This document shows positions 4,479 to 32,880 of a stretch of 64,000 nt of DNA, piece after piece. Each line of letters opens with the position of its first letter. The stretch's first letter is position 1. The DNA is taken from the NCBI GenBank assembly GCA_035328405.1, contig DAOLIT010000028.1, positions 577 through 64,576 of the forward strand, written 5' to 3'. The position numbers were made by a program, and so were the translations under genes. Source of the stretch: Pseudomonadota bacterium (GTDB taxonomy: Bacteria > Myxococcota_A > Polyangia > Palsa-1104 > JAEUJZ01). The notes below the pieces were generated by a model that saw nothing but the letters and a program-made list of their open reading frames with translations, was not told the origin of the DNA and searched no databases.

Positions 4479-5186
4479 TTACAGGTTGGAGAAAACCAAC
4501 AACCCACCGATAAACAAGGTCAAGAGACTCAACGAAGCCAAATAGTACCAAGCAGAAGAACGGCTTTTCTGTGCCACTTGCGGAGCTGGCGAAACCATGT
4601 GAATGAGTGCTTTGTCAGCGTGAGCTTGCAATTCCCTTGCATCGCGTCGCCTTTTCCTCTTCCGAATCGGATTCACTGCTCCTGGGATACGCTCTGTGAC
4701 CAGTGCCTTGTACCGAAGTAGCTTGCTGTTGTCAGCCCCGAATTTTCCAACAAAGCCGGATGCCAGGCAGTAATACAGAACTTCAAAAACCACTGAAGGG
4801 GTGTCTGGCTTCGCCAATCGTTCGTCGACAAAGTCATAGAAGACATCTCCTCCGTAATTGATCTGGAACAGATCGGATTGCAGCAGGAGCCAGCTAGTCT
4901 GTTGCTGTTTCGGTAGATGACTCATCACCATTTCATCGCAGAGCAAGACCAGTGGAAACATCACCAAGTAGACTTCGTTCTCGCCCATCTCTCGGGTCAG
5001 ATTGTCCTTGAGTGTGTCAAGCTGCGTTTTGACCTCGCTGCGCAGACGATCCAGTGTCTCACTAGGAATCATTGTTGCGACCCCATTGCGCTCTCTTGTT
5101 TTCTCTTTCTGATGCACCGTGCGTTCAAGGAGATTGGCAATATCTCGTCTGAGCATGATGATCATCTTCCATAACGTGAGTTTCAC
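4479..5186 (-). CDS. tssL: TssL / DotU-family membrane-complex protein
   Basis: 235 aa with a DotU-like core (YLVMFPLVLLCDEMVM...WLLLQSDLF...GGDVFYDFVDERL...VFEVLYYCLASGFVGKF) and a single C-terminal TM (WYYLASLSLLTLFIGGLLVF). The GTG start overlaps the tssF stop; alternative ATGs lie 7 and 10 codons in. Confidence 0.75.
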   Translation of the reverse strand: MKLTLWKMIIMLRRDIANLLERTVHQKEKTRERNGVATMIPSETLDRLRSEVKTQLDTLKDNLTREMGENEVYLVMFPLVLLCDEMVMSHLPKQQQTSWLLLQSDLFQINYGGDVFYDFVDERLAKPDTPSVVFEVLYYCLASGFVGKFGADNSKLLRYKALVTERIPGAVNPIRKRKRRRDARELQAHADKALIHMVSPAPQVAQKSRSSAWYYLASLSLLTLFIGGLLVFSNL

Positions 5187-6919: not shown

Positions 6920-9900
6920 CTATTCCTTAAAGTGCTGTGCTGTTTTGTCTGCCGCTTGTTCTGTCCGTGGTGCCAGTTGTTTTGCGGCACTCATGACATT
7001 CTTTGCAAACGCCAGGACCTTGGCCAACCAGTCCTCTCCAATTGGTTCCAGTGGTCCCTCTTTGCCCTCTGTTTGCTCCCACTTGTTGCTGATTTGCGAG
7101 CCTTTTCCGGGCTCAAGGAACGCCAGTTCGCTCTTCTGGTTCTGCGGTTCAAGTGCTTCGCCCTCAGTCTTGAGCCACTCCTCGGTGAGTTCCGCCAAGG
7201 CCGTTTCATTTTCCGCAGTTCCCCTTTGAGTTTTGCCCTGATCTCCGCCCTCATGCAGTGCCCTTGTTTTAAGAATTTCTAACGTCTTTTTCAGGACGTG
7301 GGCCAGATCCTGCGGAAGTTGCTTTGCTGCGACCGCGCGCTGTCCCTGGTTCATCAGTTCCGCCACGTCATTGTGTTGCGAAAGGACATGTAGCCAGGGT
7401 TTGAGATCCGACAGTTTCCGTATACTACCGGAGTTCCCATCGGGAGTCTTCTCGGGAGTCTTCTCGCCTATCGACAACGCAGCGCCCAAAATCGATGCTC
7501 CAACAGAGAGAATGTTCTCACCCGGAAGGCTCAACAGAGTAGCGGTTGGAGCCGCTTTCAAGATTGTTTCCACCGTTTCCCAGTCTTTCACAAGCGCGCG
7601 AGAAGCACTTTTTGGGGCCTCTTTTTGGGAGAAGGACACCTGCGTTTTTGCAACCCCTTTTTCGGCGCTCTGAACGGTCTCCGTGATCGCATCCAGCACA
7701 ATTCGCTTGGGAAATGATTCGCTGCCTTCTTTGGCACTTTTCTCGGTAGTTTCTTTTGCAGTCCCCTTTGGAGTTTCCTTTGCAGCCCCCTTTGGAGTTT
7801 CTTTTGCAGTCCCCTTTGGAGTTTCCTTTGCAGCCCCCTTTGCAGCCCCTTTGGCGGTCCCCTTTGAAGGGTCCGTAGTCGATTTCTGTCCTATTTCTTG
7901 GACTACATCTTTCGTTGTTTGTGATGTCTTTTCCTTTGACGACGGAGTAGCCGCATCTGTCCCTGTTTTCTGTTGCGTCGTGGGCTGTCCCTTCACAGTC
8001 CCCTGTCCCGCCTCTTTGATGGCCCCCTTTTCGATCTCTTGTGCGAATTTCTTTTCTGCTGTCTGCATCGAGGCATTCACAACACTTTTCGGATCAGGTT
8101 TCAGTATTTCGATCGCTCTCGATGAGGTATCTTTGTATGAATCATCCGCCAGCGACGCCGCAGCCTCCGCGATTGCATCCATTCGCGGAGGCTTTCCTTC
8201 CACAATGTCTGCCGTTATTTTCAACACCTGCATCGCTGCGACTAGTTCTGGGAGTCGATGAAGTGCCACAATGGGATTTTCCGCGATTGCAATCGCCGAA
8301 GATCGAGGCAGATGGCCCGCTTCTGTTGCAGCAGCAGCAAAGTCCACGATCGGTTGGAGCTTGTTTGGCTCGTGATCTCGTGCAACCCCTATGGTTTCTG
8401 TGTCATGGTTCGGGACTTCCTTTTGAAGCAGTTGAGCGCGCAGTTCGGCTACTTCCAGACTGCTCATGTTCGCTAGTTGGTATCCACGGATGGCATGCGG
8501 TGCAATCGATGGGGGCAAAAGGTCCGCTCTCCCCGCCAGCCCGAGGAGAATGAACAACACAGCCAATTCTGGGCGAGCATCAAAAATCGCTTCCGCAATG
8601 TTCCGCAATGGAGCAGAGTGGTTCCCAGAAAGAACCCCCGCTTGTCCCGCGAGTGCCGCAGAAAGAAGCTGTGGAATCAGCAACGGTCTGTATCTGAGTA
8701 CATCAAGCAGTCTGTCGCGATGGATGGCTTCCAGGAGTGCCAACAGCGACGCTTCCGAGAGACCCGGAATCTCGACCACATTGGATGGTTTGTCTGCATT
8801 TGTAATCGACTCCACATCATCCAAGGAGTGCGAGGGAGGGGGCGCATCGGAAAGGTCTGTGTGCTCTGGATTTGTGGGTTCTGATTCCACCGGAGGGAGG
8901 TCATGTCCCAACTCTGCAAGATACATTTGAAGTGCCAGGTAGAACTGCACTTGATAGGGGGTTAGGTGTTCTGGATGACCCGCATCGCTGTCTTGTTCCA
9001 GGTTGGTTCGCGCCTGAAAGGCCTTCAACATGTCTTCCAGTTCAGCGATTGGGTGAGGGGCTCCTGCTGACGCGATCTGGAAAGTATGCAGCATGTCATT
9101 GGGAGTCATCCCTTCCCAGATCATATGTGAAAACAGAGACACCAAACGCTCCATGACAACATAGGGGTCCTGCTGCGGCGCTCCTCGCAACAGATGACTC
9201 TTGGTGCTTTCTGAGTCCCCAAACTTGTCGTCCAAACCGCCGTTTGCGAGCGCCTCGATCTTCGCCAAAAGCTTGGCCGCAGCCTCGACGTTGCCCGGTT
9301 TCTGCGATGGAATGGGGCCACTGCGAGCAACCTCTCCGAAGAGTGAATTCCCGATCCGCTCAGCGGCCTCCTTCGCACTCGAAGTCACGCTTGCAACAGT
9401 CTGTTTTGGCTCAGCGCGCTGGACTTCCACCTTCTTCTGTTTGTCGTGCGCGAAAGCATCATTTTGTCGGTCCCGCCATCGCTGTTTCCGGCTGTGGGGT
9501 TCGCGATCATCCGCGCTGGACTCTGCTGCTTCCTGTTCGTGTTGTGCTGCACGGGACTCTGTATGTTGCGGTTGTTTGTCGTCTTCCGGGGATTCTGTTT
9601 CCTGCTGTTCGGTACGCTTCCTGGACACTCTCTTTGTGCCACGTTGTCTGACAGCTTCTTCGGTCGGTGAGATGAGCCTCATCACAAGACTTGATGCGGT
9701 CTTGGCGTCTTCTGAATTCTCGCGCCAAATCGGCTCTGAGTTTTTCTGGCTTCGTTCGGAATCTCGTTCGGAATCCTGCTCAGAATCTCGTTCGGAATCC
9801 TCGTGAGTCTCCCTTCCCAAATCTTTGTGAGACTTTTCCATCGAGGCTTTTTCCGCGTCTTTTTTGGAGTCTTTTTTGGAGACTCGTTCGGAATCCTTTT

Positions 9901-12900
9901 CTGAATCCCTTTCGGACTCATCCTCGTCGTCCAGATCGTTCTCTGTATCCAGTGAGTTCGTCTTTGGTGGCGGTCCAATTTCAACCTGCGTCCCATGCAC
10001 ACGAGTTGTCACGCCAGTCATTGAATTGCGGAGTCCTGTTGAAGAAACCTCGGAACCGAAACTGTGAATGCCAGGCCCGCCCCCAAAGGTTCCGACTCCT
10101 CCAGTGATTCCCATGAGTCGAATCCCCTTGAGCGCATTGATAAGGACCTTGAGGGCATTCACAACGACCCCGTTCATGGCTGTGAGGTTCAGACCGGACG
10201 GCGTTTGCAACGACATTCCAGCCAAACTGGATAAGGTCATCCGTCCCAGACTTTGGTAGCTCGAACTTTTCTGCGAGCGGACCCACAACTTTTCGACGTC
10301 GATTTTCAGTTCACGACACTTGATGGTGATGGTGTCGCCGTGTTGTTCGATGCTGGCTTTGTGGTCTCCGTTTGCCGTCTCAATGCGGATGCCCTGTGGT
10401 CCCACGAGCACGGCGTGGCTGGCCTTGTGTGAAGGACAATCGATTTCCAAAGCAGCCCCACTCCCAGAGTCCATTCCAAACCGACAGTGGGAAGGAACGA
10501 GAGGTTCTCCTTGGGTCTCCGATCCGGGCCTGGGCAACGGAGGTAGTTCAGGCGGGGATTTGTCGTTGTTTTCTTCGCCTGTATCCTCGAAATCCTTGTC
10601 GCTGTCCTTGTCTCTGTCCTTTCCCCTGTCCTTGCCCCTGTCCTTGTTTCTGCTCTCGTCTCTGCTCTCGTCTCTGCTCTCGTCTCTGTCCTTGCCTCTT
10701 GGTATGTCGTTGGCAGCGAAACTCGGTACAGCATAGGGGTACTTTTCATCACCGATATCGCCCCATCCTTGATCGTACAAACCCCGTCTACTCGCTTGCT
10801 GGGGATTGTTTTTGCGGTTCGGTGTGCGTGCTCGTTCTGCGACGATGACATCCGCGTCAAATTCCGACTGTGGTTTTTCATCCAATTCGTGCGCAAGGAG
10901 TCCGTCCGCCTTCCGCATTCTGGCATTTTCGGATACGCGGGCATGCTTTTCTGTCCGCAGCATTTTTGTAGAGTGGAGTGTTTCTTTCGTGTCCGTTTCG
11001 TGAAGCGATTGTTCTGTCTTTGCGAGTTCCTGCAATTCTCGTTTGGCCTGTTCAGCGACGATCTTCCGCAGATTCCTCACAACCCAACGCGGAGTTTTTG
11101 CGGTGATGTCTGTTTTTCTTCCAACTTGGGGGACCGACTCCTGTGGGCCTCTGATGTGGTTTGCTTTTGGACTCTGTTTTGCATTTTTCTTCAAAAATTT
11201 CGCAGAGATGTTGTGCATGGCTGCGGCGTGCTTGGCCTGCGCTTTCAGGAGTGTCATCGTAATCACTTGGTCTGGAAGGCTTGCAGTAGGTCCGGGGACC
11301 TGTGCCTCAGCTTTCATGCCGCCCCCCATTCCTCCTGGCATGAGCGAAAGGAGTCCGGCTACCCCCGCCTTGCACTTGATCTCAAGCGCCTTGCTCAAAG
11401 CGAGCGTAGCCCTCTGGATGGCCAAATCCACCTTGGGACTGATCGGGGGAATCGACTTCTGTTCAATGCCGCTTTGGTACATGCGCAGAAACTGCATGGT
11501 GCTGTACCGTTGCCTTTGTATCTTGTATTCGGGCACGTCCTTGTCATACGTCAGTTTGTGTGTGACGCCGTTTGTGAAGTCGTGCCCGATCATGAGCTGG
11601 TTCCCCTGATTGCGCGACGGTATCGTCGCCATGGGTCGCCAGTCCAGATAACGACCCAGATCGGCTCTGTCGAAGTAGAGACTGACCTGTACGTGCTCCT
11701 TTCGATATGCAGGATAGAAGTACTGTCCAGGTTGAAAATTGGGAATGAAAGGGGTCTTGACGAGCTGGCAACCGAACACCGGCAATTGAATTTGATAGTA
11801 CTGCTGGCTACCAATAATCGTTGAGGCGTTTTCCCACGTTTGTGTTCCCGGCATGCCCATCATGGAATACACAATCCCTTCGACTTCCAGCGGATATCGG
11901 GGCTTCACATAGCTTGGTAAGGAGGGCTCTGTATCGCGGCCTGTTTTCAGAAAAACCGCCAAGGAACACGCAAACAGTCCCGTGCTTTTTGCGGACATCC
12001 TGGGCATCACATCGGTTTCGACGGTCTTGGCTTCAAACACCATGCGGGCGACGCGGTTGACTCGTCTGGCTGCTTTGGGAATCACAAATTCGTGGTTCGG
12101 AAAATCAAGGGGGTCCAAGTTGAAATCAAGACCCACACCCGGTGGAAAAGGCCTGGAAGGGAAGCGGCGAAAGTAGAGCAAAAACGCAGGAGATGGCTGG
12201 GAAAAGGTGGCCAACCGTTTGATGTATTCCATGGCAAAGTTCAACGGAACCGGCGTGGGAAACCACCTGTCTTGCTTCAGGGGAGAAAGCGCCTGCAAAT
12301 TCAGTACGGCTTGGGTACTCGCCACGCGCGCGGAGTCATTCCTAAGTCGCTCCTCATAAAAGCGTCCCATGGTTCCCGTTGTGACGATTTTCGCGATGTC
12401 TCTTGCAAAAATCTGGAACGGTTTGGGACGACGGGGGCGCTCCTGGATGACGTAGATGTTCTGTGAGTAATCGTAGGTCAGGGTGTGCTCCATCTCGTCG
12501 AGCCGCCAGACCAACCAGTCATAAAAACTCGCGCGCTCGGTAACGGAGTGTTGCCGATTCAGATTGAGGAAAATCTGGTCTTGTGGAAGCGAAAGGGGGA
12601 TGCTTTTCACCTTCACGTTGATGAGCAAATTGGCGTTCTTTTTGATCACCTGGGACATTGATGTGTTCGTGTACAGCTCAATGGGAAAATGTTGCTTCCA
12701 CAAAGCTTGCGCGGGGTCGCAAAACTCAATCGCATATTCACGGACAGAGACGATTAGATCATTGGCTTCGCGGCTTGTATGTTGACAGACCGTGTGCGAG
12801 GTGATGACCGCCGTAAGCAGCATCTCGATGGGAACCAAAGGGCCGTTCGGTGAAAGTCCTGGTTCCAGCAGTTGCGGGATTCCCACCATGGCAGGAACCG

Positions 12901-13849
12901 GCGCAACAATCGGAACCAATTTCGGGGGAAGGACCCCCGGAGGCGCAACATTCTGGAAAGACTTCAATGCGACGCTGATGTCAGGGGGGGGAATCGGTCT
13001 TGCGAGTTGTTCCAGAAGTACCTGTCTCTCTTTCAAGAGCTGCGCTTGCCCGGCGGCATTGCCGGCCAACTGGGCTTGGATCAGTTGGGTCGCAGCAGCG
13101 ATGGTTTCAGGGGGTTGAGGAACGACCAGCAAAAGGGAGAGATTTCCCGAAAGAGACGCGGCCTGTTCCTGCATGAGCAGCAGCGCACGTTGATTCTGAA
13201 GTAGACTCTGCTGAAGGATTGCCCGTTGCTGCTGAATGGCCGCCGCAACTGCCGCTGGAAGTCCTTGAAGAGCCTGGAGTGCCTGTGCAATCGCCGGACT
13301 GATGGGCACGACGACGGGCATCGTGGGAATCGCTCCGACAATTTGAGGAACCATTTCAAGGGTTAAAGGGGGCACGGCTTTCAGATCGTTGTACACAGGA
13401 CGCAAACACAGTTTGAGCATCAAGATGTTGTTGCCCGCAAACGCCTTGGCTACTTTGTCGGTATCCTTGATGTCGCCAAGGAGTTTTGTGTCGGACATCC
13501 GAAAACGCATCCGCCCCGTGAAACCATGGGTGGCCATGTCAAGAGAGAGGTGTGTGATGTTGTGTCCTTCAATCTTAATGGGAGGAAGTTGTCCCAAAAA
13601 AGGGGGCATGATGGGACTGCCCGGCTTCACCGCACCGGGCGGCGGTTTGTGGGGAGGCTTCGTTGCCAAGTCGATGTTATCGAGTTCCGTGAGTACAAGC
13701 GGAACGGGCGGGGGTGCAGGCAACACTGCCGGAGGAACCACTTGCACAATTTCAAACACAAAACTCAGCTGTTCGTGAAATGTAGGGGTCTCTTTGGCCA
13801 GCTCTTCTTCGAGGGTATCTGGCTCTTGTCCGGGGTGTTTACGATCCAT
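6920..13849 (-). CDS. vgrG: Giant VgrG-like spike protein (gp27-like, gp5 OB-like and beta-helix regions plus a ~940-aa C-terminal extension)
   Basis: ~2,310 aa. gp27-like segments: ITHLSLDMATHGFTGRMRFRMSD; EYAIEFCDPAQALWKQHFPIELYTNTSMSQVIKK; SFYDWLVWRLDEMEHTLTYDY. gp5 OB-like segment: YYQIQLPVFGCQLVKTPFIPNFQPGQYFYPAYRKEHVQVSLYFDRADLGRYLDW. Beta-helix-like repeats: GIRIETANGDHKASIEQHGDTITIKCRELKIDVEK...LNLTAMNGVVVNALKV. The ATG at 13849 (track TTG at 13855) overlaps the tssE end. Confidence 0.75.
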   Translation of the reverse strand: MDRKHPGQEPDTLEEELAKETPTFHEQLSFVFEIVQVVPPAVLPAPPPVPLVLTELDNIDLATKPPHKPPPGAVKPGSPIMPPFLGQLPPIKIEGHNITHLSLDMATHGFTGRMRFRMSDTKLLGDIKDTDKVAKAFAGNNILMLKLCLRPVYNDLKAVPPLTLEMVPQIVGAIPTMPVVVPISPAIAQALQALQGLPAAVAAAIQQQRAILQQSLLQNQRALLLMQEQAASLSGNLSLLLVVPQPPETIAAATQLIQAQLAGNAAGQAQLLKERQVLLEQLARPIPPPDISVALKSFQNVAPPGVLPPKLVPIVAPVPAMVGIPQLLEPGLSPNGPLVPIEMLLTAVITSHTVCQHTSREANDLIVSVREYAIEFCDPAQALWKQHFPIELYTNTSMSQVIKKNANLLINVKVKSIPLSLPQDQIFLNLNRQHSVTERASFYDWLVWRLDEMEHTLTYDYSQNIYVIQERPRRPKPFQIFARDIAKIVTTGTMGRFYEERLRNDSARVASTQAVLNLQALSPLKQDRWFPTPVPLNFAMEYIKRLATFSQPSPAFLLYFRRFPSRPFPPGVGLDFNLDPLDFPNHEFVIPKAARRVNRVARMVFEAKTVETDVMPRMSAKSTGLFACSLAVFLKTGRDTEPSLPSYVKPRYPLEVEGIVYSMMGMPGTQTWENASTIIGSQQYYQIQLPVFGCQLVKTPFIPNFQPGQYFYPAYRKEHVQVSLYFDRADLGRYLDWRPMATIPSRNQGNQLMIGHDFTNGVTHKLTYDKDVPEYKIQRQRYSTMQFLRMYQSGIEQKSIPPISPKVDLAIQRATLALSKALEIKCKAGVAGLLSLMPGGMGGGMKAEAQVPGPTASLPDQVITMTLLKAQAKHAAAMHNISAKFLKKNAKQSPKANHIRGPQESVPQVGRKTDITAKTPRWVVRNLRKIVAEQAKRELQELAKTEQSLHETDTKETLHSTKMLRTEKHARVSENARMRKADGLLAHELDEKPQSEFDADVIVAERARTPNRKNNPQQASRRGLYDQGWGDIGDEKYPYAVPSFAANDIPRGKDRDESRDESRDESRNKDRGKDRGKDRDKDSDKDFEDTGEENNDKSPPELPPLPRPGSETQGEPLVPSHCRFGMDSGSGAALEIDCPSHKASHAVLVGPQGIRIETANGDHKASIEQHGDTITIKCRELKIDVEKLWVRSQKSSSYQSLGRMTLSSLAGMSLQTPSGLNLTAMNGVVVNALKVLINALKGIRLMGITGGVGTFGGGPGIHSFGSEVSSTGLRNSMTGVTTRVHGTQVEIGPPPKTNSLDTENDLDDEDESERDSEKDSERVSKKDSKKDAEKASMEKSHKDLGRETHEDSERDSEQDSERDSERSQKNSEPIWRENSEDAKTASSLVMRLISPTEEAVRQRGTKRVSRKRTEQQETESPEDDKQPQHTESRAAQHEQEAAESSADDREPHSRKQRWRDRQNDAFAHDKQKKVEVQRAEPKQTVASVTSSAKEAAERIGNSLFGEVARSGPIPSQKPGNVEAAAKLLAKIEALANGGLDDKFGDSESTKSHLLRGAPQQDPYVVMERLVSLFSHMIWEGMTPNDMLHTFQIASAGAPHPIAELEDMLKAFQARTNLEQDSDAGHPEHLTPYQVQFYLALQMYLAELGHDLPPVESEPTNPEHTDLSDAPPPSHSLDDVESITNADKPSNVVEIPGLSEASLLALLEAIHRDRLLDVLRYRPLLIPQLLSAALAGQAGVLSGNHSAPLRNIAEAIFDARPELAVLFILLGLAGRADLLPPSIAPHAIRGYQLANMSSLEVAELRAQLLQKEVPNHDTETIGVARDHEPNKLQPIVDFAAAATEAGHLPRSSAIAIAENPIVALHRLPELVAAMQVLKITADIVEGKPPRMDAIAEAAASLADDSYKDTSSRAIEILKPDPKSVVNASMQTAEKKFAQEIEKGAIKEAGQGTVKGQPTTQQKTGTDAATPSSKEKTSQTTKDVVQEIGQKSTTDPSKGTAKGAAKGAAKETPKGTAKETPKGAAKETPKGTAKETTEKSAKEGSESFPKRIVLDAITETVQSAEKGVAKTQVSFSQKEAPKSASRALVKDWETVETILKAAPTATLLSLPGENILSVGASILGAALSIGEKTPEKTPDGNSGSIRKLSDLKPWLHVLSQHNDVAELMNQGQRAVAAKQLPQDLAHVLKKTLEILKTRALHEGGDQGKTQRGTAENETALAELTEEWLKTEGEALEPQNQKSELAFLEPGKGSQISNKWEQTEGKEGPLEPIGEDWLAKVLAFAKNVMSAAKQLAPRTEQAADKTAQHFKE
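7749..7870. repeat. In-frame 24-bp tandem repeat encoding (AKETPKGT/A)n in the VgrG C-terminal extension
   Basis: The ttgca units start at 7756, 7780, 7804 and 7828 (period 24), then degenerate to period 12. The protein reads KGAAKGAAKETPKGTAKETPKGAAKETPKGTAKETTEK. Confidence 0.9.
9753..9800. repeat. In-frame 12-bp tandem repeat (cgttcggaatcy x4, one unit diverged) encoding (DSER/DSEQ)n in VgrG
   Basis: Read directly. The protein reads EDSERDSEQDSERDSERS, inside a wider acidic low-complexity tract (~9740-9960). Confidence 0.85.
10649..10684. repeat. In-frame 12-bp tandem repeat (tctgctctcgtc x3) encoding (RDES)n in VgrG
   Basis: Three identical 12-mers read directly. The protein reads KDRDESRDESRDESRNKDRGKDRGKDRDKDSDKD, inside a wider tract (~10575-10700). 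Confidence 0.9.
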
Positions 13850-14225
13850 GCACAAGCTCCACAGTCACACTCCCGCTAGGTGTATGAAAGCGAATGAGCA
13901 ACTGACAGGGGAACCCCCAATAGCTAGACAGGATGGTGCCTTGCAGCTCAATGTAAAGCCGAAGTGTGTTGTCTCTGCCGTGTACTTTTAGACTGTTCAC
14001 GCGCAACCTGGGTTCGTACGTTGCGATGGTGTCGTTGATTTCACGCAGAAGAGTCTGTGTGGCGGCACTTCCGCCCGATTCCTTCAAGTAGTCTGCGGTG
14101 CCAAAGCTGTGAAGGAGTGAACCAAAGCCCCGGCGCGCATTGAGCACATGGTCTAGATTCCGCACCACGCTTTGTGCCTCTGTATCCTTGGGTGCGTCCG
14201 GCAAAAAGCGATTCAAAAACGACAC
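13839..14225 (-). CDS. tssE: TssE (gp25-like) baseplate wedge protein
   Basis: 128 aa fitting the GPW_gp25 pattern: VVRNLDHVLNARRGFGSLLHSFG...LLREINDTIATYEPRLRVNSLKV...LRLYIELQG. The GTG start is preceded by GGGGGAG. Confidence 0.85.
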   Translation of the reverse strand: MSFLNRFLPDAPKDTEAQSVVRNLDHVLNARRGFGSLLHSFGTADYLKESGGSAATQTLLREINDTIATYEPRLRVNSLKVHGRDNTLRLYIELQGTILSSYWGFPCQLLIRFHTPSGSVTVELVHGS

Positions 14226-14255
14226 GGTTTCTCCCCCTCATCATTCAGTGAAAAC

Positions 14256-15500
14256 CTAGCGCCAGAACAGAAATGCGTTGGCTTTTTCAAGAACCGGGTG
14301 GACGTAGAAAGCGACAGCAGACTCGCGCAGAACGTGGTTCCATTCTTCGCCCCCTTGCAACAAATAAAAATCGACCTCTGGGCCAAAAGTATGTTGAAAA
14401 GGGGGTCTTTCCATATGTTTGAAAGGGACACCCCGCAACACCAAACGGTGTACGAGCGCAAGGCGGGACGTACACGACACTTTGACCTCGGCCAGATCAA
14501 TCCGTTCATGCAAGGTCGCGCGTTGGATCAACAGGTAAACTTCTTGGGAGTCCTTCACTTCTTCGGGAAGACCGCTCAGCGAAAACAGACCATTGTTCTT
14601 GACGAAGCGCAGATGTGTCGATCGCGTGTACACCGGACGCAAATGTCGATTCAGTTCTGATAGCAAACTGAAAAACGAAATAGCCAATTCGTCGTGTCGA
14701 TAAGGAAAAGAAGGATGATCTGGAACGACTTCATGAAAAGTACAGAGTTCCAAAAGGAGCCTGCGCAGAACAACAAACAGGTCGTATGGATGCAAAGGAA
14801 CGTGGTGCTTTAGATCAGCCAGCGTGGACAAGGTTTCGTACAAAAGGGCCAGACAGCGACGCATCGCTTGCAAGCGTTCGGGACGCAAAAACGTGTCTTG
14901 AAGCTGGGCCACCATTTGCGGTTCCAGATTGGTCAAACGGGTTTCAAGATCCGACAGGGGTTGAAACAAATATGGGGTCGTGTTCACTTGCAAAAATGGG
15001 GGAACGTAGGTATTTGCGAGTTTCCAACTTCCGTCGGCTTCTTTGCGAAAATCGCCCAGTTTCAGCGAGCCGACAGCGCGTTCGTGTTTGTCGCTGATGC
15101 TTAAGTAGGCGCGGTGCAGGACACGCTCCACGACGCGAGGATCGGAATCGTAGGTGCGGTTCCCCTCGCGGCCCAGCTCCTCATCTGTGATGTGAACATA
15201 GACAGGGAGGTAGGTCGCTGAAGTGGCCTTGAGAGAGAGGGGAGATACGATCGCATTGCCCGGCACACTCACGATCTGTCCATCTGGAAGGAGGATCGTG
15301 AGTGCGCTCAAACTCAACACCCCGTCTTCCAGCAGGGGTTCAGAAAAGGACAGTTCCGCCACCCCGTAACAGGGGCGTCCCAAAAAGCGCGTACGGAGGT
15401 CGGCCTGCGCAAAGGAGGTCGCTTGTTGGGCACGCAAGTGTTCGGGCAACACAGTCTGCCCAAGAAACCAACGAACAGGGGCGATTTTGAGGTGGCTCAT
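14256..15500 (-). CDS. tssK: TssK (ImpJ/VasE-like) baseplate protein
   Basis: The N-terminus reads MSHLKIAPVRWFLGQTVLPEHLRAQQ...YGVAELSFSEPLLEDGVLSLSALTILLPDGQIV, which is the TssK signature. I chose the ATG at 15500 (track start 15533) because the upstream gene stops at 15509. Confidence 0.85.
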   Translation of the reverse strand: MSHLKIAPVRWFLGQTVLPEHLRAQQATSFAQADLRTRFLGRPCYGVAELSFSEPLLEDGVLSLSALTILLPDGQIVSVPGNAIVSPLSLKATSATYLPVYVHITDEELGREGNRTYDSDPRVVERVLHRAYLSISDKHERAVGSLKLGDFRKEADGSWKLANTYVPPFLQVNTTPYLFQPLSDLETRLTNLEPQMVAQLQDTFLRPERLQAMRRCLALLYETLSTLADLKHHVPLHPYDLFVVLRRLLLELCTFHEVVPDHPSFPYRHDELAISFFSLLSELNRHLRPVYTRSTHLRFVKNNGLFSLSGLPEEVKDSQEVYLLIQRATLHERIDLAEVKVSCTSRLALVHRLVLRGVPFKHMERPPFQHTFGPEVDFYLLQGGEEWNHVLRESAVAFYVHPVLEKANAFLFWR

Positions 15501-15508
15501 GGCGATGG

Positions 15509-16129
15509 CTACGTGGGGTTTGTGCGGCCCCACATCTTGGTGATCGGTGCCTTGTCTTTCGCAGCCAAGATGATCGACTGATTCAGACCTGCGGGGACGA
15601 TCTTGATCGAAAACGCATAGAAAGAGTTGTCTTGGATAGACAGGTCGTCATTGTCGTTGAGGTCGATCGCCAGCTCGCGGTCCCCTTCCTTTAAGACTTT
15701 GCCTTTCAAGAGTGGTGCATCAAAGCATGCATAGTATTTCTTGGCTGTTGAGAGTGGATCGTATTCAAAGACTTTCACTGCAAAGTCTACACTGATATCT
15801 GTCAGACTTGCGTACAACAGATTGACCAGCGTCTGTTTGAGCATAATGGGAACAAGTCCCTCTAGGATAATGGGATCAGTCGCTCCCAAGTCCCAGCGCA
15901 CTCGCGTCAACAGAGCCACCGCATTGACCTGCCCAGCGGTCTCGGCCCCACCCGCTCCCGCCGCCGCTGCTGGCGCCGCCGCAGCCAGACTCGGATCTTT
16001 GCAGGCGATGATGAAGGGGGTGACGATCAGTGACAAATCAAATTTGGCCATATAACCAAATGGTGCGCGCGAGTTGGGTTTGTGATTGATTGCTTGTTCG
16101 GGTGACAGTCGTTTGTCAAATACAAACAT
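15509..16129 (-). CDS. Hypothetical 206-aa protein occupying the Hcp/TssD position
   Basis: A strong AAGGAG sits 6 nt before the ATG. The gene lies between tssC and tssK, where hcp often sits. The sequence has alternating hydrophobic patterns that look beta-rich, plus an Ala/Gly-rich loop (AAAAPAAAAGAGGAETAG). I see no resemblance to canonical Hcp N-termini. Confidence 0.7.
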   Translation of the reverse strand: MFVFDKRLSPEQAINHKPNSRAPFGYMAKFDLSLIVTPFIIACKDPSLAAAAPAAAAGAGGAETAGQVNAVALLTRVRWDLGATDPIILEGLVPIMLKQTLVNLLYASLTDISVDFAVKVFEYDPLSTAKKYYACFDAPLLKGKVLKEGDRELAIDLNDNDDLSIQDNSFYAFSIKIVPAGLNQSIILAAKDKAPITKMWGRTNPT

Positions 16130-16177
16130 GTGTGTTCTCCTTCGTTGTGCTTGTACGTCTGCAAGAAAAGGGAGTCG

Positions 16178-17665
16178 TTATCCCAGCCGACTTTCGAGCT
16201 TGAGTTCGATGTCCATTCCTTCAAACTGGATGTGCGGCAAAATGGAAACCTTGCAATCGTAGAAGCCGATGCGACCAGGCACAGCGTCCACCTTCACAGC
16301 GCAGGCCTTGAATGGAAAGCGGCGCATGGTGACGTCGTTCGGAGTCACCGCCGTGGTTACGTAGCGCGACAGCCAGCTCGTAAGTTGTTCCTTCAGGGAT
16401 TTGTCGTCTGAATTGTCGCCGATGTTGTCGCGCACGATGCTCTTGAAGTAGTGGGCGATTCGCGAAACAGAGAACGTGTACGCCAGGTTTGTGACCAGTT
16501 GGGAATTTTCGGTGTCCTTCGGATCGCGATATTCCTTGGGAAGCTTGATTGCGGGGACGCTGAAGAACACGGCTTCTGCTGTGCCTTTGCGATGTACCAG
16601 GGACGCAATTCCACAACGGGTAAACTCCAATTCCCTGTAGTCGGGAATGTACATCTCGATCGGAATCCGAACTTCTGATTCTCCACGGACGTTGAAGGTA
16701 TCGACTGGAAGACCCGCGATATGTCCGCCGCCCCCTGGTCCGCGGATGTACTGACACCAACCGGATTGTTCAAAGGAGCGGATCAGGTTGCGCGCCAACA
16801 GCAAAGCAGAGTTTCCCCACAGGTAGTTTTGTCGTTGTCCGCGAGTCACTTCCACAAACTGAAGTCCGGGGCTCGGATTCGTTTCCGGGTTCCAGGGCAG
16901 ACGAATCACGTACCGAGGGAAAGCCAGGCCGACGTATGCGGCTTCGGGGGTGTCCCGCAGGGCCAACCATTGACCGAATTTGGGTTGACTGAAAACACCC
17001 TCCAGGTCGCGAATGGCCTCGACTTCCTCGATGTCTTTGCAACCAAAAAACTGTGGTTTCACAGAGGTCAAAAACGGCGCGTGTGCCGCTGCCGCCACCT
17101 TGGACATATTCCGCAACCAGAACAGGTCGGCAGGGGACGTATCAAACTCATAAATACCCAACAAACATCCGTAGGGTTTGCCTCCGTACTGGTCGTACTC
17201 TGTCTTGTAGACTTTGCTGAACAGCGCGCCGGCGAACACGTCGGTGGAATTCGAGTCAAAATCCTGGTGCAGTTCTTCCTTGCTGGCGTCGAGCAACGCG
17301 ATCTGGATGTTGGATTCGAAATTGGTGGTTTCCACAAGACCATTGATTCCGCGCCAGGTGGCTTCCAGATCCTGAAAAACAGGGTGATGCAGAATTTCGT
17401 TCAACTGATCGTTCACCGTCTGGTCAATCTGGCGCACGACCTCGAGCACTTTGCCCTTTTCGATTCGCTCTGCAGACTCATCCAGGTTGCACAGCATCGC
17501 AGCCAAACCGGTCAGCAGACGCTCCTCCTGCGTGACATCCTCACGCGCAGCAACAAAGCGGTCTGAAAACATGCGGGTCAGACTTTTGGTTTCTTGTCCA
17601 AGTTGAGCGGCTTCCAGAATGCGAGGCAGAATGCGCGTCTGGGTACCAGTGGGTGTCTCGGCCAT
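16178..17665 (-). CDS. tssC: TssC / VipB contractile sheath large subunit
   Basis: 495 aa with classic TssC blocks: HHPVFQDLEATWRGINGLV, YGGKPYGCLLGIYEF, AAAAHAPFLTSV, AYVGLAFPRYVIRLPW, YLWGNSALLLARNLIRSF, RIPIEMYIPDYRELEF, VSRIAHYFK. AAGGAG precedes the ATG. Confidence 0.97.
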   Translation of the reverse strand: MAETPTGTQTRILPRILEAAQLGQETKSLTRMFSDRFVAAREDVTQEERLLTGLAAMLCNLDESAERIEKGKVLEVVRQIDQTVNDQLNEILHHPVFQDLEATWRGINGLVETTNFESNIQIALLDASKEELHQDFDSNSTDVFAGALFSKVYKTEYDQYGGKPYGCLLGIYEFDTSPADLFWLRNMSKVAAAAHAPFLTSVKPQFFGCKDIEEVEAIRDLEGVFSQPKFGQWLALRDTPEAAYVGLAFPRYVIRLPWNPETNPSPGLQFVEVTRGQRQNYLWGNSALLLARNLIRSFEQSGWCQYIRGPGGGGHIAGLPVDTFNVRGESEVRIPIEMYIPDYRELEFTRCGIASLVHRKGTAEAVFFSVPAIKLPKEYRDPKDTENSQLVTNLAYTFSVSRIAHYFKSIVRDNIGDNSDDKSLKEQLTSWLSRYVTTAVTPNDVTMRRFPFKACAVKVDAVPGRIGFYDCKVSILPHIQFEGMDIELKLESRLG

Positions 17666-17747
17666 AACGTACTCCTTTGGTTTCTGTTTCCGTCGCTGGG
17701 TTCCTCTTCAAACGGCAACATATTCGTTTGGGAATCCAATTCTGTTT

Positions 17748-18290
17748 CTACGCAAGCACCGTTCGGGGGGCCAACTCCTTGCGCGACAAAAGCTTCAGAT
17801 TCCCAAAGGGTTCAAGTTCCTTCCGCAGCTGCGCGCGTTCTGCTGCATTCCCAAGAATCTGTTGGAGCAGATTGCGCACATCCTTGCGGTTGTCCACTTG
17901 AGCCATCATTTCAAGGAGCACTTTTCGCAGAAGGAGAAGCGACCGAATCTGCGGAATGTTGCTGGCGACCTCAGCCGGATTGAAAGACTTGCGGTTCGTG
18001 ATGGGAATGTCGACTTCAAGCTCTCCAGCCTCGGGGTCGAGGTGATTTTTTGCGGCGAGCTTCAAACGGATTTTCATGTTTTCCATGAGCTCGTCGATGT
18101 TCTTGGCATCCAGGTTGCGTAGCCGGCGCGTTTCCAGATCGACACTGCGATCGGTAGACGTTCCATGCGACAAATCTGCCAGCACGATCAAACGAAACGG
18201 GAGTTCCACTTCCTTGAGCTGACCTTGCACATTGGTTTCGTAAGTCAGGTTGACGCGGGAGCGCGGGATCAATTGTTGAATCGACTTCAC
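17748..18290 (-). CDS. tssB: TssB / VipA contractile sheath small subunit
   Basis: The 180-aa product starts at GTG 18290 (VKSIQQLIPRSRVNLTYETNVQGQLKEVELPFRLIVLADLS...), preceded by AAGGAGGA 5 nt upstream. This matches the TssB pattern (R.RV.I.Y......veLPF...VlaDls; FNPAEVASNIPQIRSLLLLRKVL). The track ORF extends to 18542 with no support. Confidence 0.9.
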   Translation of the reverse strand: MKSIQQLIPRSRVNLTYETNVQGQLKEVELPFRLIVLADLSHGTSTDRSVDLETRRLRNLDAKNIDELMENMKIRLKLAAKNHLDPEAGELEVDIPITNRKSFNPAEVASNIPQIRSLLLLRKVLLEMMAQVDNRKDVRNLLQQILGNAAERAQLRKELEPFGNLKLLSRKELAPRTVLA

Positions 18291-18330
18291 GGTGTCCTCC
18301 TTATGGGGTGAGAGATACCGTGACTGTGAC

Positions 18331-18347
18331 AGCACTGACCATGCCAA
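18331..18347 (-). promoter_or_regulatory. Candidate sigma-54 (-24/-12) promoter for tssB and downstream genes
   Basis: The minus strand reads TTGGCAT-GGTCA-GTGCT, against the consensus TGGCAC-N5-TTGCW with correct GG/GC spacing. It lies about 40 nt upstream of the tssB GTG and 110-150 bp downstream of a palindrome array. Confidence 0.6.
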
Positions 18348-18453
18348 CTTCCCAATCACCGCCGCACTGCATTCGGTCAAAACTTTGCAAGGGAAACCCG
18401 GTGTTTGGGACATGCCGAGAGCATTCATCCCGACGACAAACGCGGGAGTGGTC

Positions 18454-18485
18454 TGTGCGCTCAACATGCGCACACTGCGCGCACA
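18454..18485. promoter_or_regulatory. Array of 11-bp-phased GC-rich palindromic decamers (putative upstream activator/operator sites)
   Basis: The plus strand reads TGTGCGC-TCAA-CATGCGCACA-C-TGCGCGCACA, with units starting at 18454, 18465 and 18476. The same motif family and phasing occur at 27050-27095. Confidence 0.6.
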
Positions 18486-18514
18486 TACTTGCTGTTGGGA
18501 AAGACATGTACCGT

Positions 18515-18967
18515 TTATGGGAGTCCCCTTCCCAAACGACATTCTTTGACTTGAGGAATGATCATTCCGGTTCGACCAAGCGGAACAGAAATCGTCCAGG
18601 GAAGTGGTGGAGGAAGCAGCAATTTCCAGCTCCCTGTCGTTGAATCCAGCAGCAAATAGATCCCCACAGATTTGTCACTGGGAACGGTCAAAAACATCCT
18701 CCTTTTTTGATTCGGTTCAAGCAAGAGAGTCCGAATCACCGTCTTGTCTGGCTTCACTGCAAGCTGAACCACATCCGCGTAACTTTCGTCGCGGTATTGT
18801 TCGGAAGAAACAGTCCGAACCAGCACATGCAGAGGCCTCCCCTGGTTTGTGTCTTGGTGGCTTTGGACCGTCACCCACATTCGCCAAGACGAACACCCAC
18901 TTTGCAACAAAAACAATGCAACCAAACACCACCATCCAAAAGAAAATCGACGCAGCGCGGGGTTCAT
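18515..18967 (-). CDS. tssJ: TssJ-like (VasD/SciN-type) outer-membrane lipoprotein
   Basis: 150 aa with a signal peptide and lipobox-like LLQSGC. The body fits the TssJ pattern (RPLHVLVRTVSSEQYRDESYADVV...RRMFLTVPSDKSVGIYLLLDSTTGSWKLLL). An ATGA overlap joins it to the tssM stop. Confidence 0.7.
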   Translation of the reverse strand: MNPALRRFSFGWWCLVALFLLQSGCSSWRMWVTVQSHQDTNQGRPLHVLVRTVSSEQYRDESYADVVQLAVKPDKTVIRTLLLEPNQKRRMFLTVPSDKSVGIYLLLDSTTGSWKLLLPPPLPWTISVPLGRTGMIIPQVKECRLGRGLP

Positions 18968-21900
18968 GGTGATGTAACCCGAAACAGCAACCAGGGATCG
19001 GGCGCGATCACAAAGCGAATCACTTGAACTTCTCCCGCTCCCTCATCGTGAATCCGCCACGTACTTTCCCCGTCGTTTTCCACAGTGCTTTTTTGCAGCA
19101 GCCGAAACAGACTCCACGCAGAATCGGCCACTTCCAACGTCTGCGTGTGTCTGCGTCCCGATTTGCTCGATGTACTTTCGATTCCCACAAGCGCGGCCCC
19201 CTGATTCCACCATTCGATCGATACCGAATCCGCAGTCGTGCGCTGGTTGAGTCCATAGAAGGTATTTTTTCCTACGCGCAAAAAGGCCACTGATGGCTGT
19301 ACTCCTGCACCCTCTTGCGCCCGTTTTCCTTGTACACCCCGAATCGTCAAACGGAGTGGTTGACGGCCTCCTTTTGCGTCGAAAAGTACCCGACTCAACT
19401 TTGCGATTTGGTTCACCGTTTTGAGCAACTCGGAAGGCAAAGGAAGGGCACCCAAACTGCTGCGCCGTGGTCGATACAAACCGTCTTGCAGCACAATTGC
19501 GGGTTCATAAAACGATCGAACATCTTGGAAAAAAGACCCACTGCTTTCGTTCAGCACATCGAGTTCAGAAGGCGCAACCTCACGTTCGGCGGAAGCGTGA
19601 AAGGGAAAACGCTGAAGAAGTGTCTGTAATTTTGGAAGAGCTTCTTTGTTCCAGTGGTCGGAAAGGGTCGTAGCAATGTCCTTTTCGCCTCGACGGTAAA
19701 CGGCCAAGAAGGGGTCCATAAAGGGTTTGCGGAATGCGCCCACAATCCCTGCTTTGTCCAAGAATTTCTCTGCTTCAGAAAGAGGAGAACCATCCCCTGA
19801 ACCGGATGGTTGCGACATCAAGAGGGCACTTTTACCAAGCGGTCCCAAACGATCTGCAAGACCTGTTTTTCCGTCGGGATTCTTTCCGTCGCCCTTGCTG
19901 TGTGAGCCCCACGGCGCATCCAAAGACTCGGCCAATTTGGCTATCGTGGACAAATAGGGTTCAAGCCCTTTCGGTTTCTCGTCACTCCCTTCCACAGTCG
20001 CATTCCCTGGCCCATTCCCAACCGTGTCATTCCCTTTCCCGGCGGACTTTGGCGGAGTGTCCGTTTTCTGTGTCTCCTTCTCTGTCACCTTCTCTTTTTG
20101 TGGGACTTCAGGATTCGGCTTTTCTCGACGACGCTTGAGCAAATCAGGATTCACAACCCGAACCAGGGGTTCAAATTCCGCAAGACAGACTGCCAGCGGT
20201 TTCAAAAACGGATCATCCAAACCCGACAAGGCTGCGTTTTCCGCCACGGTTTGTACATGCGCCACAAAACGGGAGCCGGGTTTCACGATGTCTAGCAACG
20301 CGGTATGAACATCCTCGACGGAATGGCCGCTCCCTCGAATGTGAAAGTGATAGCTCAAATAGTATCGGGACAGTCCTTTGCAGTACTTGTCTGCATACCC
20401 CTCGATCTCATTCCGAACCAAGTGTGTGAGTCGGATTTTGTCCTCGGGTCCAAGCGCCTTGCTTTCCGCAACAGCCCTCCGCAATTCGCGCACCAATGGA
20501 AGGACTTCATGGTCAAACACCGTTCGGTTGTATTCGTCTCCCAAATCATCCGCAGGGAGTTCTCCGGTGCTCAAAAGATGTGCAATCCGTGGTCGGAGTT
20601 CCTCGTGGCTAAAGGGTGGCATATCGTGGCTGTGCCTGGACGGACGACACGATCGATCGCGACTGCTCTTTCCCGCATCGTCACAAGGGACACATTCCCC
20701 TCTTTTTCGCTTCCGTTCGGACACACAGCGGCAACACGTTTCTCGACTTGTATGGGAATGGGAATGCCCGCCTTGATGAACATGGTGAATGTGATGGGAC
20801 AATAGCCACCGCTTTCGACTCCGCAAAAGAAGATCCAGCCACCCCTGTTCGCTGATCTCCAGGATTTTTCCATTCGGAAATGCAAAATGCGTGGGCTCTT
20901 GGGGGAGTGTGGATCTTATCGCAGAGACACCTGTTCGTTTCTCTTCTCCAGACGACAGTGCATTCACGTAGCGCAAGAGTTGATAAAGACTCATGTGCCT
21001 GTGTTTGCCGGATTGCGCGCTACTTTCTTCGATCAAGCGCAAAAGGAGTTCCAAGTTGGTCAGGTTGTCCACCAGCCAAGGTTCAGGGAGGAGGACTCCT
21101 GCATCTCCCCCAAACAGTTTGTTCATGTCGAGCGGGGTTTCCTCTGCCAACATTTGATAGACGCGGCGCAACACGCTTGCTCGTCGCACACGCTCGATTG
21201 TTTCGCGCAGATTCAGGGTCTTTTTTCGCAAGTTCTCGAGTTGTTCGTTGGAAATCGAAGGCTGCAAAATCGCGTGCGCGATCGTTTGTACATACTCCTG
21301 CCACGGGCGAAGATCCGTCACGGGGTACTTCGCGGATTCGGTAGGAATCGGCGGCAAGAGGAGCAGAGCCTTGTCTTTCCAGGCTACCGGACTGTTTGCA
21401 ACGTAGTCTGTCAGCAGATCCACTGGAAGAGACAACGTTTCTGAAAAATCGCTGCGCTGCGTATCCAAAAGAGTTCCGAGGGCGGTTCCTTTTGCGGCAT
21501 ACAGCGCCGCAAGTGCATACAGAATTTTGTCCCTTGCACGTTGACGCACACCCGATTCCAGCGCCGGTCGCAGATAACCTTGCCGCAATCCCTCCACAAA
21601 ACTCTGTTCTGCGTCCGCTTTTTCCTTTCGTGCCAGCAAACGGAACAAACGAAAACGCTGCTCGTCTTGACGAAAATGATCGAGAGCCTGAGCGGCTTCC
21701 CGTTCACTGCGGCGAACCACATCCGATTCCCGCGGTGAAGACAGCGATTCCTGAGCCCGCCTCACACTCCTCTCAAACGCCTCGGTTGCGTCGGTGGCCA
21801 GCTTTACTTTGTGCGCGTGCCTGTGTGTTAAGTACCAAATCGGAAAGGCCCCCCCGAATAAAAGAAGAAGACTCAGCAACGTATGCAAGGGTCGAATGCC

Positions 21901-22974
21901 CAGCGCCAAAAACCAGCGCCAGATTCGCGTAAAGAAGCCGGGCGCTCGCGTTCCCTTGGCTAACACCGGATCAAACGGATTCCCAACCTCTTCATCCGAT
22001 GCAAGAGAGAAGAAGTACACAGCCTGTACATCGGGCCGAACAGAGGTTACTGCACCCTCGACAAGTGCTGTGATAAATGCGCGCACAGGCGTCATCAATT
22101 CCTGTGCTGAATGCAGTATCTCAATGCTGGCTTCAAACGGACCCACCGGCATGGTCGTCAGTGCGCGCGGCAGGTGTTTCTCATATCCTTGCAGAGCGGC
22201 CCCCAAACTGCTCTGCGCGTCGCCACCGGCATCCAGAACGAGTGGAATTTTGTTTTTGTGCAAAAAGCGCGAAAATTCCGAATACCCCGAAATCCGTTCC
22301 ATGTTCGTCAGGCATAAACGAGTATGAATCGGTGCCCCATAGATCTCTGTAAGCAGATTGATTTTTCCCCGAATCAGCTTGGCTTGTTGTCGCAAAACAT
22401 CGGGACTCATTGTGGACAGCACAGAGACCTTGAGAACGATGAGTACCGTCGGGATTTGTGCGGACGGAAGCGACGTTTTCCACAACTTTCGGAAACCATC
22501 GTGCGCTTCTCTGCTGGCCGATTGAAGCAGTGTTGAGGAAACTTCGTGTATCACGCACCGACTACCCAAATAAATCTGCAAAAGGGGGTCAGCCGTATAA
22601 CTTGGGAGGAACTGACTGGCTTGGCTCTGCCAATCGACACGCCGACTGATGAGCGCACTCTTGCCAACACCAGGATCACCAAAGACCAGAAAGTGATCAT
22701 AGTCCGAGAGTGCGACGCGAACACTGGCAGGAAGGGGTGCAAGAAAGCGCTGCCATATGGACAGAAGCCGTTTGCGGTTTGCTTGGTTCACTGCTCCTTG
22801 GCTGGGTCGTTCCGTAGGTGAACGTTTTCGAAACAGACGGACAACCAGATAGATCCCCCCGATCACGAAGGAAACAAACAGGATGGCGAGCAGAATCAGC
22901 GCGACAGTGTTCGTCCCACGAACCATTCCATCCGCCAACCCTGATGACATTCCGAGCATGGCTATCCCAACCAT
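18964..22974 (-). CDS. tssM: TssM / IcmF-family membrane-complex protein with a Walker A motif and a His/Cys-rich insertion
   Basis: 1,336 aa. It has an N-terminal TM, then DHFLVFGDPGVGKSALISR (Walker A, as in IcmF/TssM), then a TM block around FFTRIWRWFLALGIRPLHTLLSLLLLFGGAFPIWYL, then a long C-terminal region. Confidence 0.9.
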   Translation of the reverse strand: MVGIAMLGMSSGLADGMVRGTNTVALILLAILFVSFVIGGIYLVVRLFRKRSPTERPSQGAVNQANRKRLLSIWQRFLAPLPASVRVALSDYDHFLVFGDPGVGKSALISRRVDWQSQASQFLPSYTADPLLQIYLGSRCVIHEVSSTLLQSASREAHDGFRKLWKTSLPSAQIPTVLIVLKVSVLSTMSPDVLRQQAKLIRGKINLLTEIYGAPIHTRLCLTNMERISGYSEFSRFLHKNKIPLVLDAGGDAQSSLGAALQGYEKHLPRALTTMPVGPFEASIEILHSAQELMTPVRAFITALVEGAVTSVRPDVQAVYFFSLASDEEVGNPFDPVLAKGTRAPGFFTRIWRWFLALGIRPLHTLLSLLLLFGGAFPIWYLTHRHAHKVKLATDATEAFERSVRRAQESLSSPRESDVVRRSEREAAQALDHFRQDEQRFRLFRLLARKEKADAEQSFVEGLRQGYLRPALESGVRQRARDKILYALAALYAAKGTALGTLLDTQRSDFSETLSLPVDLLTDYVANSPVAWKDKALLLLPPIPTESAKYPVTDLRPWQEYVQTIAHAILQPSISNEQLENLRKKTLNLRETIERVRRASVLRRVYQMLAEETPLDMNKLFGGDAGVLLPEPWLVDNLTNLELLLRLIEESSAQSGKHRHMSLYQLLRYVNALSSGEEKRTGVSAIRSTLPQEPTHFAFPNGKILEISEQGWLDLLLRSRKRWLLSHHIHHVHQGGHSHSHTSRETCCRCVSERKRKRGECVPCDDAGKSSRDRSCRPSRHSHDMPPFSHEELRPRIAHLLSTGELPADDLGDEYNRTVFDHEVLPLVRELRRAVAESKALGPEDKIRLTHLVRNEIEGYADKYCKGLSRYYLSYHFHIRGSGHSVEDVHTALLDIVKPGSRFVAHVQTVAENAALSGLDDPFLKPLAVCLAEFEPLVRVVNPDLLKRRREKPNPEVPQKEKVTEKETQKTDTPPKSAGKGNDTVGNGPGNATVEGSDEKPKGLEPYLSTIAKLAESLDAPWGSHSKGDGKNPDGKTGLADRLGPLGKSALLMSQPSGSGDGSPLSEAEKFLDKAGIVGAFRKPFMDPFLAVYRRGEKDIATTLSDHWNKEALPKLQTLLQRFPFHASAEREVAPSELDVLNESSGSFFQDVRSFYEPAIVLQDGLYRPRRSSLGALPLPSELLKTVNQIAKLSRVLFDAKGGRQPLRLTIRGVQGKRAQEGAGVQPSVAFLRVGKNTFYGLNQRTTADSVSIEWWNQGAALVGIESTSSKSGRRHTQTLEVADSAWSLFRLLQKSTVENDGESTWRIHDEGAGEVQVIRFVIAPDPWLLFRVTSP

Positions 22975-31552: not shown

Positions 31553-31931
31553 GTCACTTTCAATGTATGTAAAGTGGTGTAAGTATGCCAAACTCATATT
31601 CCACAGACTTGTGCCTGAATGTGGTTTATATGTTTAACACTCAAACAACGAAGTTCTGTGTAAAGAAGATAGATATGATATGTTTGAAATGTGATAATGT
31701 AATACTCAATGAGATGAGTATGTCATCCATGTGAACCTACAATCCACCTTTTCCATCCCGTATCAACCCTATTCCCGTCGAAGAAGCACGTTTCGGATTG
31801 ACAGACCTGTGAAAAAAAACTGGATTGTGTATCTGGGCTCTGAAAGGGGGCCTCTATGGGGTGTGTATGCGTACAAAAGACGGGCCCCTGTGTGACCTCA
31901 TGCTAGGAAGGGGGAATGTCTACCGTGGGAA

Positions 31932-32867: not shown

Positions 32868-32880
32868 CGCATTCCCCGCG

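Follow-up and report, generated by a model that had tools for sequence, protein, structure and literature searches.

The stretch of DNA analysed here, referred to throughout as the window, is 64,000 nt long and made up of 1.98 consecutive copies of one 32,330-bp sequence, with 0 mismatches between them, each feature recurring 32,330 nt downstream. Along the minus strand, this unit encodes, in order, a Ser/Thr kinase, a TPR protein, a second Ser/Thr kinase, a TssM-like protein, an IglE_N lipoprotein, TssB, TssC and the 206-aa ORF that is our subject and that we call X (Pfam and NCBIfam assignments). After X come TssK, TssE (gp25), a 2,311-aa protein, TssF, DotU, a 151-aa ORF and a 635-aa ANL-like protein, and the series ends with a DUF4280 PAAR-like protein, an IglI-family protein and TssG. 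The plus strand of the unit carries a sigma-54-type activator and an NHL-repeat protein. Two of the ORFs probably begin too early as listed. The 25-nt overlap of the TssK ORF with X arises only from the choice of the longest GTG start; the true start is probably the ATG at 15500, 9 nt past the X stop. The 264-aa tssB ORF is probably overlong at its 5' end, with the real start about 80-90 codons downstream, since residue 91 is the first of its VipA domain and the homologues measure only 173-182 aa.

Features of the T6SS cluster around X, with the evidence for each assignment (positions in the window)
Feature	Position	Strand	Evidence
X, IglC-type inner-tube subunit (predicted)	15509..16129	-	ORF, family, model pLDDT 90.7, sole significant PDB match 2qwu
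Ribosome-binding site AAGGAG of X	16137..16142 (CTCCTT on plus)	-	7 nt upstream of ATG at 16127-16129
Ala/Gly-rich variable loop of X, residues 48-66, between strands 3 and 4	15932..15988	-	length variation and lowest model confidence
tssC / iglB-equivalent, sheath large subunit	16178..17665	-	VipB 1.4e-105, VipB_2 4e-33
tssB / iglA-equivalent, sheath small subunit	17748..18542	-	T6SS_VipA 6e-39, residues 91-243
tssK / iglD-equivalent baseplate protein	14256..15533	-	T6SS_VasE 1.6e-46
tssE (gp25-like sheath initiator)	13839..14225	-	GPW_gp25 5.6e-11
2,311-aa putative fused hub and needle spike, PdpA/VgrG-like	6920..13855	-	alignments to separate proteins of related loci
IglE-like lipoprotein (TssJ equivalent)	18515..18967	-	IglE_N 4.3e-19
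TssM/PdpB-like membrane-complex protein	18964..22974	-	IcmF-related_N 2.5e-5, IcmF_C 4e-4
IglI-family protein, 367 aa	551..1654	-	NF041244 IglI_fam 9e-56, 190 bits vs cutoff 100
DUF4280 PAAR-like (IglG-like) spike tip	1651..2211	-	DUF4280 9e-16; PMC5014421
tssF	5183..6883	-	T6SS_TssF 2.8e-22
tssL/dotU	4479..5186	-	DotU 8e-18
tssG, spanning arbitrary start of 32,330-bp unit	31932..32954	-	T6SS_TssG 2.9e-6; residues 43-322 align to TssG of L005 and L013

The X ORF was confirmed on the minus strand, with a translation equal to the protein quoted in an earlier note on this DNA, and a second, identical copy lies at 47839-48459. That note had placed the gene between tssC and tssK and credited it with a strong AAGGAG site. 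Both descriptions hold: X is flanked upstream by tssC (VipB and VipB_2) and downstream by tssK (T6SS_VasE), and the site was found 7 nt ahead of the ATG on the coding strand. The note was mistaken in calling X the only unassigned ORF of this size, as the 151-aa ORF at 3959-4414 is also unassigned, though charged and helical-looking.

Searches by sequence did not connect X to any known tube protein. At E<=10, Pfam gave no match for X or for any of its 24 close relatives, T6SS_HCP included, and the T6SS_HCP profile likewise found no match in 10 distant or long family members. NCBIfam and PHROGs returned nothing for X or these relatives even at permissive thresholds (in PHROGs, no tail-tube family), and both phmmer with X and hmmsearch with the family profiles A1 and A2, run against all PDB chain sequences including 2qwu, gave nothing at E<=10. 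Among the window ORFs scanned, none matched T6SS_HCP in Pfam or NCBIfam. Pfam includes an IglC family. The earlier note had remarked that X does not look like Hcp and lacks the canonical Hcp N-terminus, and it had suggested searches with T6SS_HCP and tail-tube profiles; that N-terminus is indeed missing, and the empty searches accord with the remark.

X nevertheless belongs to a large family. Twenty-four proteins are 55-72% identical to it, all of them annotated hypothetical, and an exhaustive HMMER search yielded 176 representatives (50% identity) at E<1e-3, mostly 185-220 aa long and thus close in size to Francisella IglC (207-aa chain). Family motifs are spread over the entire length of the protein: QGFNFKKD..PxGF near the N-terminus, W..G.TDP, YDYDP..KYF, SP.NY and K.WG. 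The N-terminal ~25 residues are the best conserved part of the whole family, and X has no signal peptide. The Ala/Gly-rich stretch of X, residues 48-66, reads LAAAAPAAAAGAGGAETAG; its length and sequence vary within the close family, and in distant members it is 10-20 residues shorter. The Ala/Gly loop pointed out in the earlier note is thus present without being a defining feature: it is a variable insertion that joins two strands in this clade only, is dispensable for the fold and probably faces solvent or the lumen. On a maximum-likelihood tree of 152 members, the clade of the window forms one long, fully supported branch. Reference genomes of the close family are Myxococcales/Polyangia MAGs, and the distant members come from one Syntrophobacteraceae MAG and from unclassified proteobacterial MAGs.

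To place X in its genomic setting, we compared 9 informative loci, 3 of them close (X 55-72% identical) and 6 distant (22-32%), on contigs of up to 7.85 Mb. All 9 have a cytoplasmic-type X member in the slot VipA-VipB-X-TssK-gp25. The 3 close loci keep the gene order of the window, and all 6 distant ones also carry IglE_N, a 1,200-aa TssM-like protein, TssF and DotU. A single X immediately follows the sheath genes in each cluster, and no Hcp-family gene lies within 10 kb in any of the 9. The identity of X to its counterparts in the distant clusters (22-32%) corresponds to the same rate as that of TssE, TssK and DotU, with the sheath slower (44-57%); by this measure, X evolves like a structural core component and unlike fast-evolving effectors. 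Because the 24 close homologues are so similar and the gene order is conserved, X is not a chance ORF. That the frame arose by chance or is a fragment annotated in error, a reading with nothing to draw on beyond the absence of database annotation, is practically out of the question: it is refuted by the homologues, the conserved loci, the 176 representatives of the family and a confidently predicted fold (see below), to which the strong ribosome-binding site can be added.

A further protein of these clusters deserves mention. The 635-aa protein of the window (2055-3962, minus strand) shows faint similarity to adenylate-forming (AMP-binding) enzymes, and an ANL-like protein of 565-635 aa is conserved in the lineage (L004 5992-7716, L006 6125-7831, L007 5997-7694, L012 4120-5820). 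Its position varies: it lies between IglE and VipA in distant clusters and beside the PAAR-like gene in the window.

The structure of X was predicted as well. A first AlphaFold model, from an alignment of 24 close sequences, reached a pLDDT of 78.7 and had no significant Foldseek match in PDB or BFVD. A second, AlphaFold2 model was built without templates from a 60-sequence alignment that included distant T6SS-embedded members, and it reached a pLDDT of 90.7 and a pTM of 0.86, with all five models at 87-91. It is a beta-sandwich with one flanking helix (residues 95-107) and strands at residues 4-7, 24-32, 41-49, 65-79, 87-94, 113-124, 131-145, 155-162, 170-179, 184-189 and 195-200; only residues ~50-64, in the Ala/Gly loop, are poorly defined. 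Against PDB, Foldseek returned a single significant match (E 3.2e-5, probability 1.00), namely F. tularensis IglC as solved by crystallography (chain 2qwu_A), and the next match followed at E 0.29. The two align over 216 columns (206 and 207 residues) with TM 0.64/0.64, an rmsd of 4.8 A and 13% identity, values that indicate the same fold for the X model and IglC and not a close match. As no templates were used and there is no sequence similarity, the resemblance to IglC cannot have been copied and must stem from co-variation within the alignment.

Below the threshold of significance, the weak fold matches are enriched in tube-fold proteins of contractile systems, namely PVC baseplate chains, phage baseplate hubs, the CIS tube and PdpA. 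The resemblance to phage and eCIS folds, among them the 'CIS tube protein N-terminal domain', stays at E > 0.01 and TM 0.2-0.46 throughout. To T4 gp19, to Pvc1, Pvc5 and Pvc7 and to the N-domain of the Mu DNA-circulation protein, X is likewise similar at sub-threshold level only, with no PHROGs tail-tube match. Canonical Hcp is absent from the best 50 Foldseek matches of either model, so X is linked to Hcp only by way of the published similarity of IglC to Hcp, the two being described as structurally homologous in a statement of PMC5924787 that cites de Bruin 2011. The comparison with Hcp, gp19 and phage tube folds proposed in the earlier note has therefore singled out one tube protein, IglC; Hcp does not appear among the best 50 matches, and the phage tube folds gave sub-threshold matches only.

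The position of X tells the same story as its fold. In the Francisella pathogenicity island, iglA and iglB specify the sheath, iglC the tube and iglD the equivalent of TssK, in the order iglA-iglB-iglC-iglD (PMC5924787 Table 1; PMC9600919), and IglC is the Hcp-equivalent tube of T6SS-ii (PMC5924787). The cluster order in the window matches this series, and the cluster also contains Francisella-type companions: IglE_N, an IglI_fam match above cutoff, the DUF4280 tip and a PdpA/VgrG-like spike. On the strength of this order, together with IglE, IglI and the DUF4280 tip, all three hallmarks of that island, we regard X as the positional equivalent of IglC. Taken with the modelled fold, these data make it highly likely that X is the inner-tube subunit of this T6SS and a distant structural relative of Francisella IglC. 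The earlier note had left two possibilities: an inner-tube protein that has diverged strongly, or an accessory component of a new kind in a system whose tube gene lies elsewhere. The IglC fold match, the conserved tube slot and the lack of Hcp in the sampled clusters favour the former, which the note had put forward without naming IglC, over the latter.

A narrower role within the tube fold also has to be weighed. X might be a tube-fold adaptor or initiator close to the baseplate, in the manner of gp48/gp54 or Pvc5/Pvc7, or a cap, with a canonical Hcp encoded elsewhere forming the bulk of the tube. Baseplate-region tube-fold chains of PVC and phages do occur among the weak matches of both models, and canonical T6SS often have orphan hcp genes at a distance from the principal cluster (PMC13098142). 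We nonetheless consider this role unlikely, as the sole significant match is a tube protein, the T6SS has no known separate initiator (Hcp/IglC is listed for that role in PMC5924787, Table 1), no Hcp gene lies within 10 kb in the 9 related loci, on contigs of up to 7.85 Mb, and the one X of each cluster sits directly past the sheath genes, in the usual place of the tube gene.

A 190-198-aa ORF between gp25 and TssF in the relatives was considered as an alternative tube and rejected, because it is a small VgrG needle: these needle proteins match the Francisella-type VgrG model NF041249. The 151-aa ORF of the window was rejected on composition. X is then the sole beta-rich protein that remains as a tube candidate in the cluster. 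The needle proteins also bear on the 2,311-aa protein of the window, of which residues 342-781 align to a separate 543-aa hub-like protein of L005 and residues ~1124-1290 to the 190-198-aa needle proteins of L004-L007. Judged by these alignments, it is a hub and a needle in one chain that related clusters encode as separate genes. The matched segments leave about 1,000 C-terminal residues of this protein without assignment.

Not all members of the family sit in secretion clusters. In about a sixth of the representatives, among them P0036, P0089, P0029, P0080, P0117 and P0144, a signal peptide directly precedes the X domain. Some of these exported members are extended by repeats of the Ig-like, HYR or Flg_new type or by a T9SS Por_Secre_tail; one 648-aa family protein contains three tandem X domains. 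There are no T6SS genes near the two exported members whose surroundings we examined (P0036, L008 8001-8639; P0089, L010 1391-2644). On the tree of 152, with "exported" assigned by a heuristic, the exported forms lie dispersed between cytoplasmic members, and the well-supported branches alone force at least 9 switches. Since signal-peptide members stand alone outside T6SS loci, the fold of the X family is not exclusive to tubes. A use of the Hcp/IglC-like fold outside contractile machines is not described in the literature that we searched. We also considered whether the long members are "evolved tube" fusions of the Hcp-toxin type, and rejected this: these proteins begin with a signal peptide and owe their extra length to Ig, HYR or Flg_new repeats or to a T9SS tail, and two of the long members lie outside T6SS loci.

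These exported relatives, with their unrelated neighbourhoods, their repeats or T9SS tails and their scatter on the tree, speak for another view of X, in which it is a general beta-sandwich with a non-structural role (such as secreted substrate, chaperone for effectors or binding protein) and resembles IglC through shared fold ancestry. We find this very improbable for the protein of the window. Members of the cytoplasmic type occupy the tube slot in 9/9 informative loci, clusters deprived of X would have no tube, and X evolves at the pace of the structural core, with its N-terminus the most conserved part and no signal peptide.

As the inner-tube subunit, X would do what Hcp and IglC do. By analogy with these two, X monomers would assemble into hexameric rings, and the rings would stack on the PdpA/VgrG-like spike, beginning at the TssE/F/G/K baseplate. 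The TssB/TssC sheath would polymerise around the X tube, and its contraction would expel tube and spike via the TssM/DotU/IglE membrane complex. We infer ring and tube assembly, sheath contact and secretion of X from these two proteins. In the IglC crystal, the N-terminal 32 residues form an extension positioned so as to block ring formation (PMC5924787). The strong conservation of the X N-terminus suggests that it has a functional role, and one may speculate that this lies in ring stacking or in contact with the sheath.

Measured against canonical Hcp/TssD (for example P. aeruginosa Hcp1), X has the gene neighbourhood and the expected role, a hexameric tube within the TssBC sheath, in common by analogy, and it has the same coarse layout of N-terminal strands, a central helix (95-107) and C-terminal strands. 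Unlike Hcp, it has no T6SS_HCP match, is about 40 residues longer and possesses a conserved N-terminal segment that Hcp lacks. With Francisella IglC, X shares the predicted fold over the full length, the size (206 vs 207 residues), the lack of a signal peptide, and a gene place that is flanked by the genes for the large sheath subunit and the equivalent of TssK, and both clusters have IglE, IglI, a DUF4280 IglG-like tip and a PdpA/VgrG-type spike alongside. It differs in that it is 13% identical to IglC, a relationship invisible to sequence and profile methods, in its clade-specific Ala/Gly-rich loop and in a far larger family with exported paralogues; instead of Francisella, its host is a sludge myxobacterium that is uncultured. 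The IglI-family ORF at 551-1654 represents a component otherwise discussed for Francisella alone.

The system as a whole also departs from that of Francisella, because its baseplate proteins TssE, TssF, TssG and TssK are still recognised by canonical T6SS-i profiles in Pfam. Among the ORFs scanned in the 32.3-kb unit there is no ClpV-type or other AAA+ unfoldase, and sheath recycling must therefore use one encoded elsewhere. Francisella uses ClpB for this step (PMC5481754). Several of the distant clusters are headed by an 865-874-aa ClpB-like double AAA+ gene (L004 1-1752, L006 1-1992, L007 1-1704). Set against the T6SS-ii traits of a baseplate beyond canonical profiles and ClpB in place of ClpV, the window system is Francisella-like in part and not a plain T6SS-ii.

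T6SS-ii has been stated to be restricted to Francisella (PMC4793230, PMC9600919, PMC12955703), and for IglC-like or FPI-like systems elsewhere, the literature that we searched gave only close relatives in Francisellaceae. Given the modelled fold of X, an IglC-type tube most likely also exists in environmental bacteria outside Francisella. The role and the fold of X are known ones; what is new is the family, which is unrecognisable by sequence and has no Pfam or NCBIfam model. We tentatively go one step further, in a proposal that we find plausible without quite leaning towards it. In this proposal, X represents a large unannotated IglC-type family of a T6SS lineage that is widespread in the environment (in Myxococcota, Syntrophobacteraceae and other MAGs) and would combine a canonical-looking baseplate with supposedly Francisella-specific parts (IglC, IglE, IglI, small VgrG/PdpA) and so form an evolutionary bridge between T6SS-i and T6SS-ii. 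The tube fold, moreover, would several times have been taken up by surface proteins that have no link to a T6SS and are Sec-exported, in some cases with T9SS sorting.

A bridge lineage of this kind, if true, would contradict the published confinement of T6SS-ii parts to Francisella, and the X-family clusters would serve as intermediates for reconstructing how Francisella diverged from canonical T6SS. X would fill the apparent "missing tube" here and in environmental T6SS clusters annotated without Hcp, and a profile made from the family alignment A3 would let annotation pipelines recognise X-type tubes. The structure of the native IglC tube was still undetermined as of a 2018 review (PMC5924787); the X family offers non-pathogenic relatives in which the assembly of an IglC-type tube can be studied.

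The organism itself appears to be common. At least 20 runs on activated sludge or wastewater, dated 2015-2025 and belonging to at least 16 studies, contain window positions 14000-19000 in near-identical form (92-100% of sampled words), which marks it as a widespread sludge resident. These include one activated-sludge metatranscriptome, in which the locus has a flat contig depth and may derive from carried-over DNA.

The repetition of the unit was followed in independent activated-sludge DNA runs. The unit contains no integrase or replication gene, and tssG reads through its start without a break. In the independent runs, the junction (31780-31832) falls into the gap that separates the NHL gene from tssG, where the assembly graph has a branch point at 31803-31809; most copies run on from there, on either side, into different flanking DNA. 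A minority path joins the end of the unit to its start via a 7-nt shared core, at a depth of 13 vs 24-30 in one run (X2) and 4 vs 5-13 in another (X3). Such a path would be expected if part of the population had the whole T6SS cluster duplicated in tandem or as a circle.
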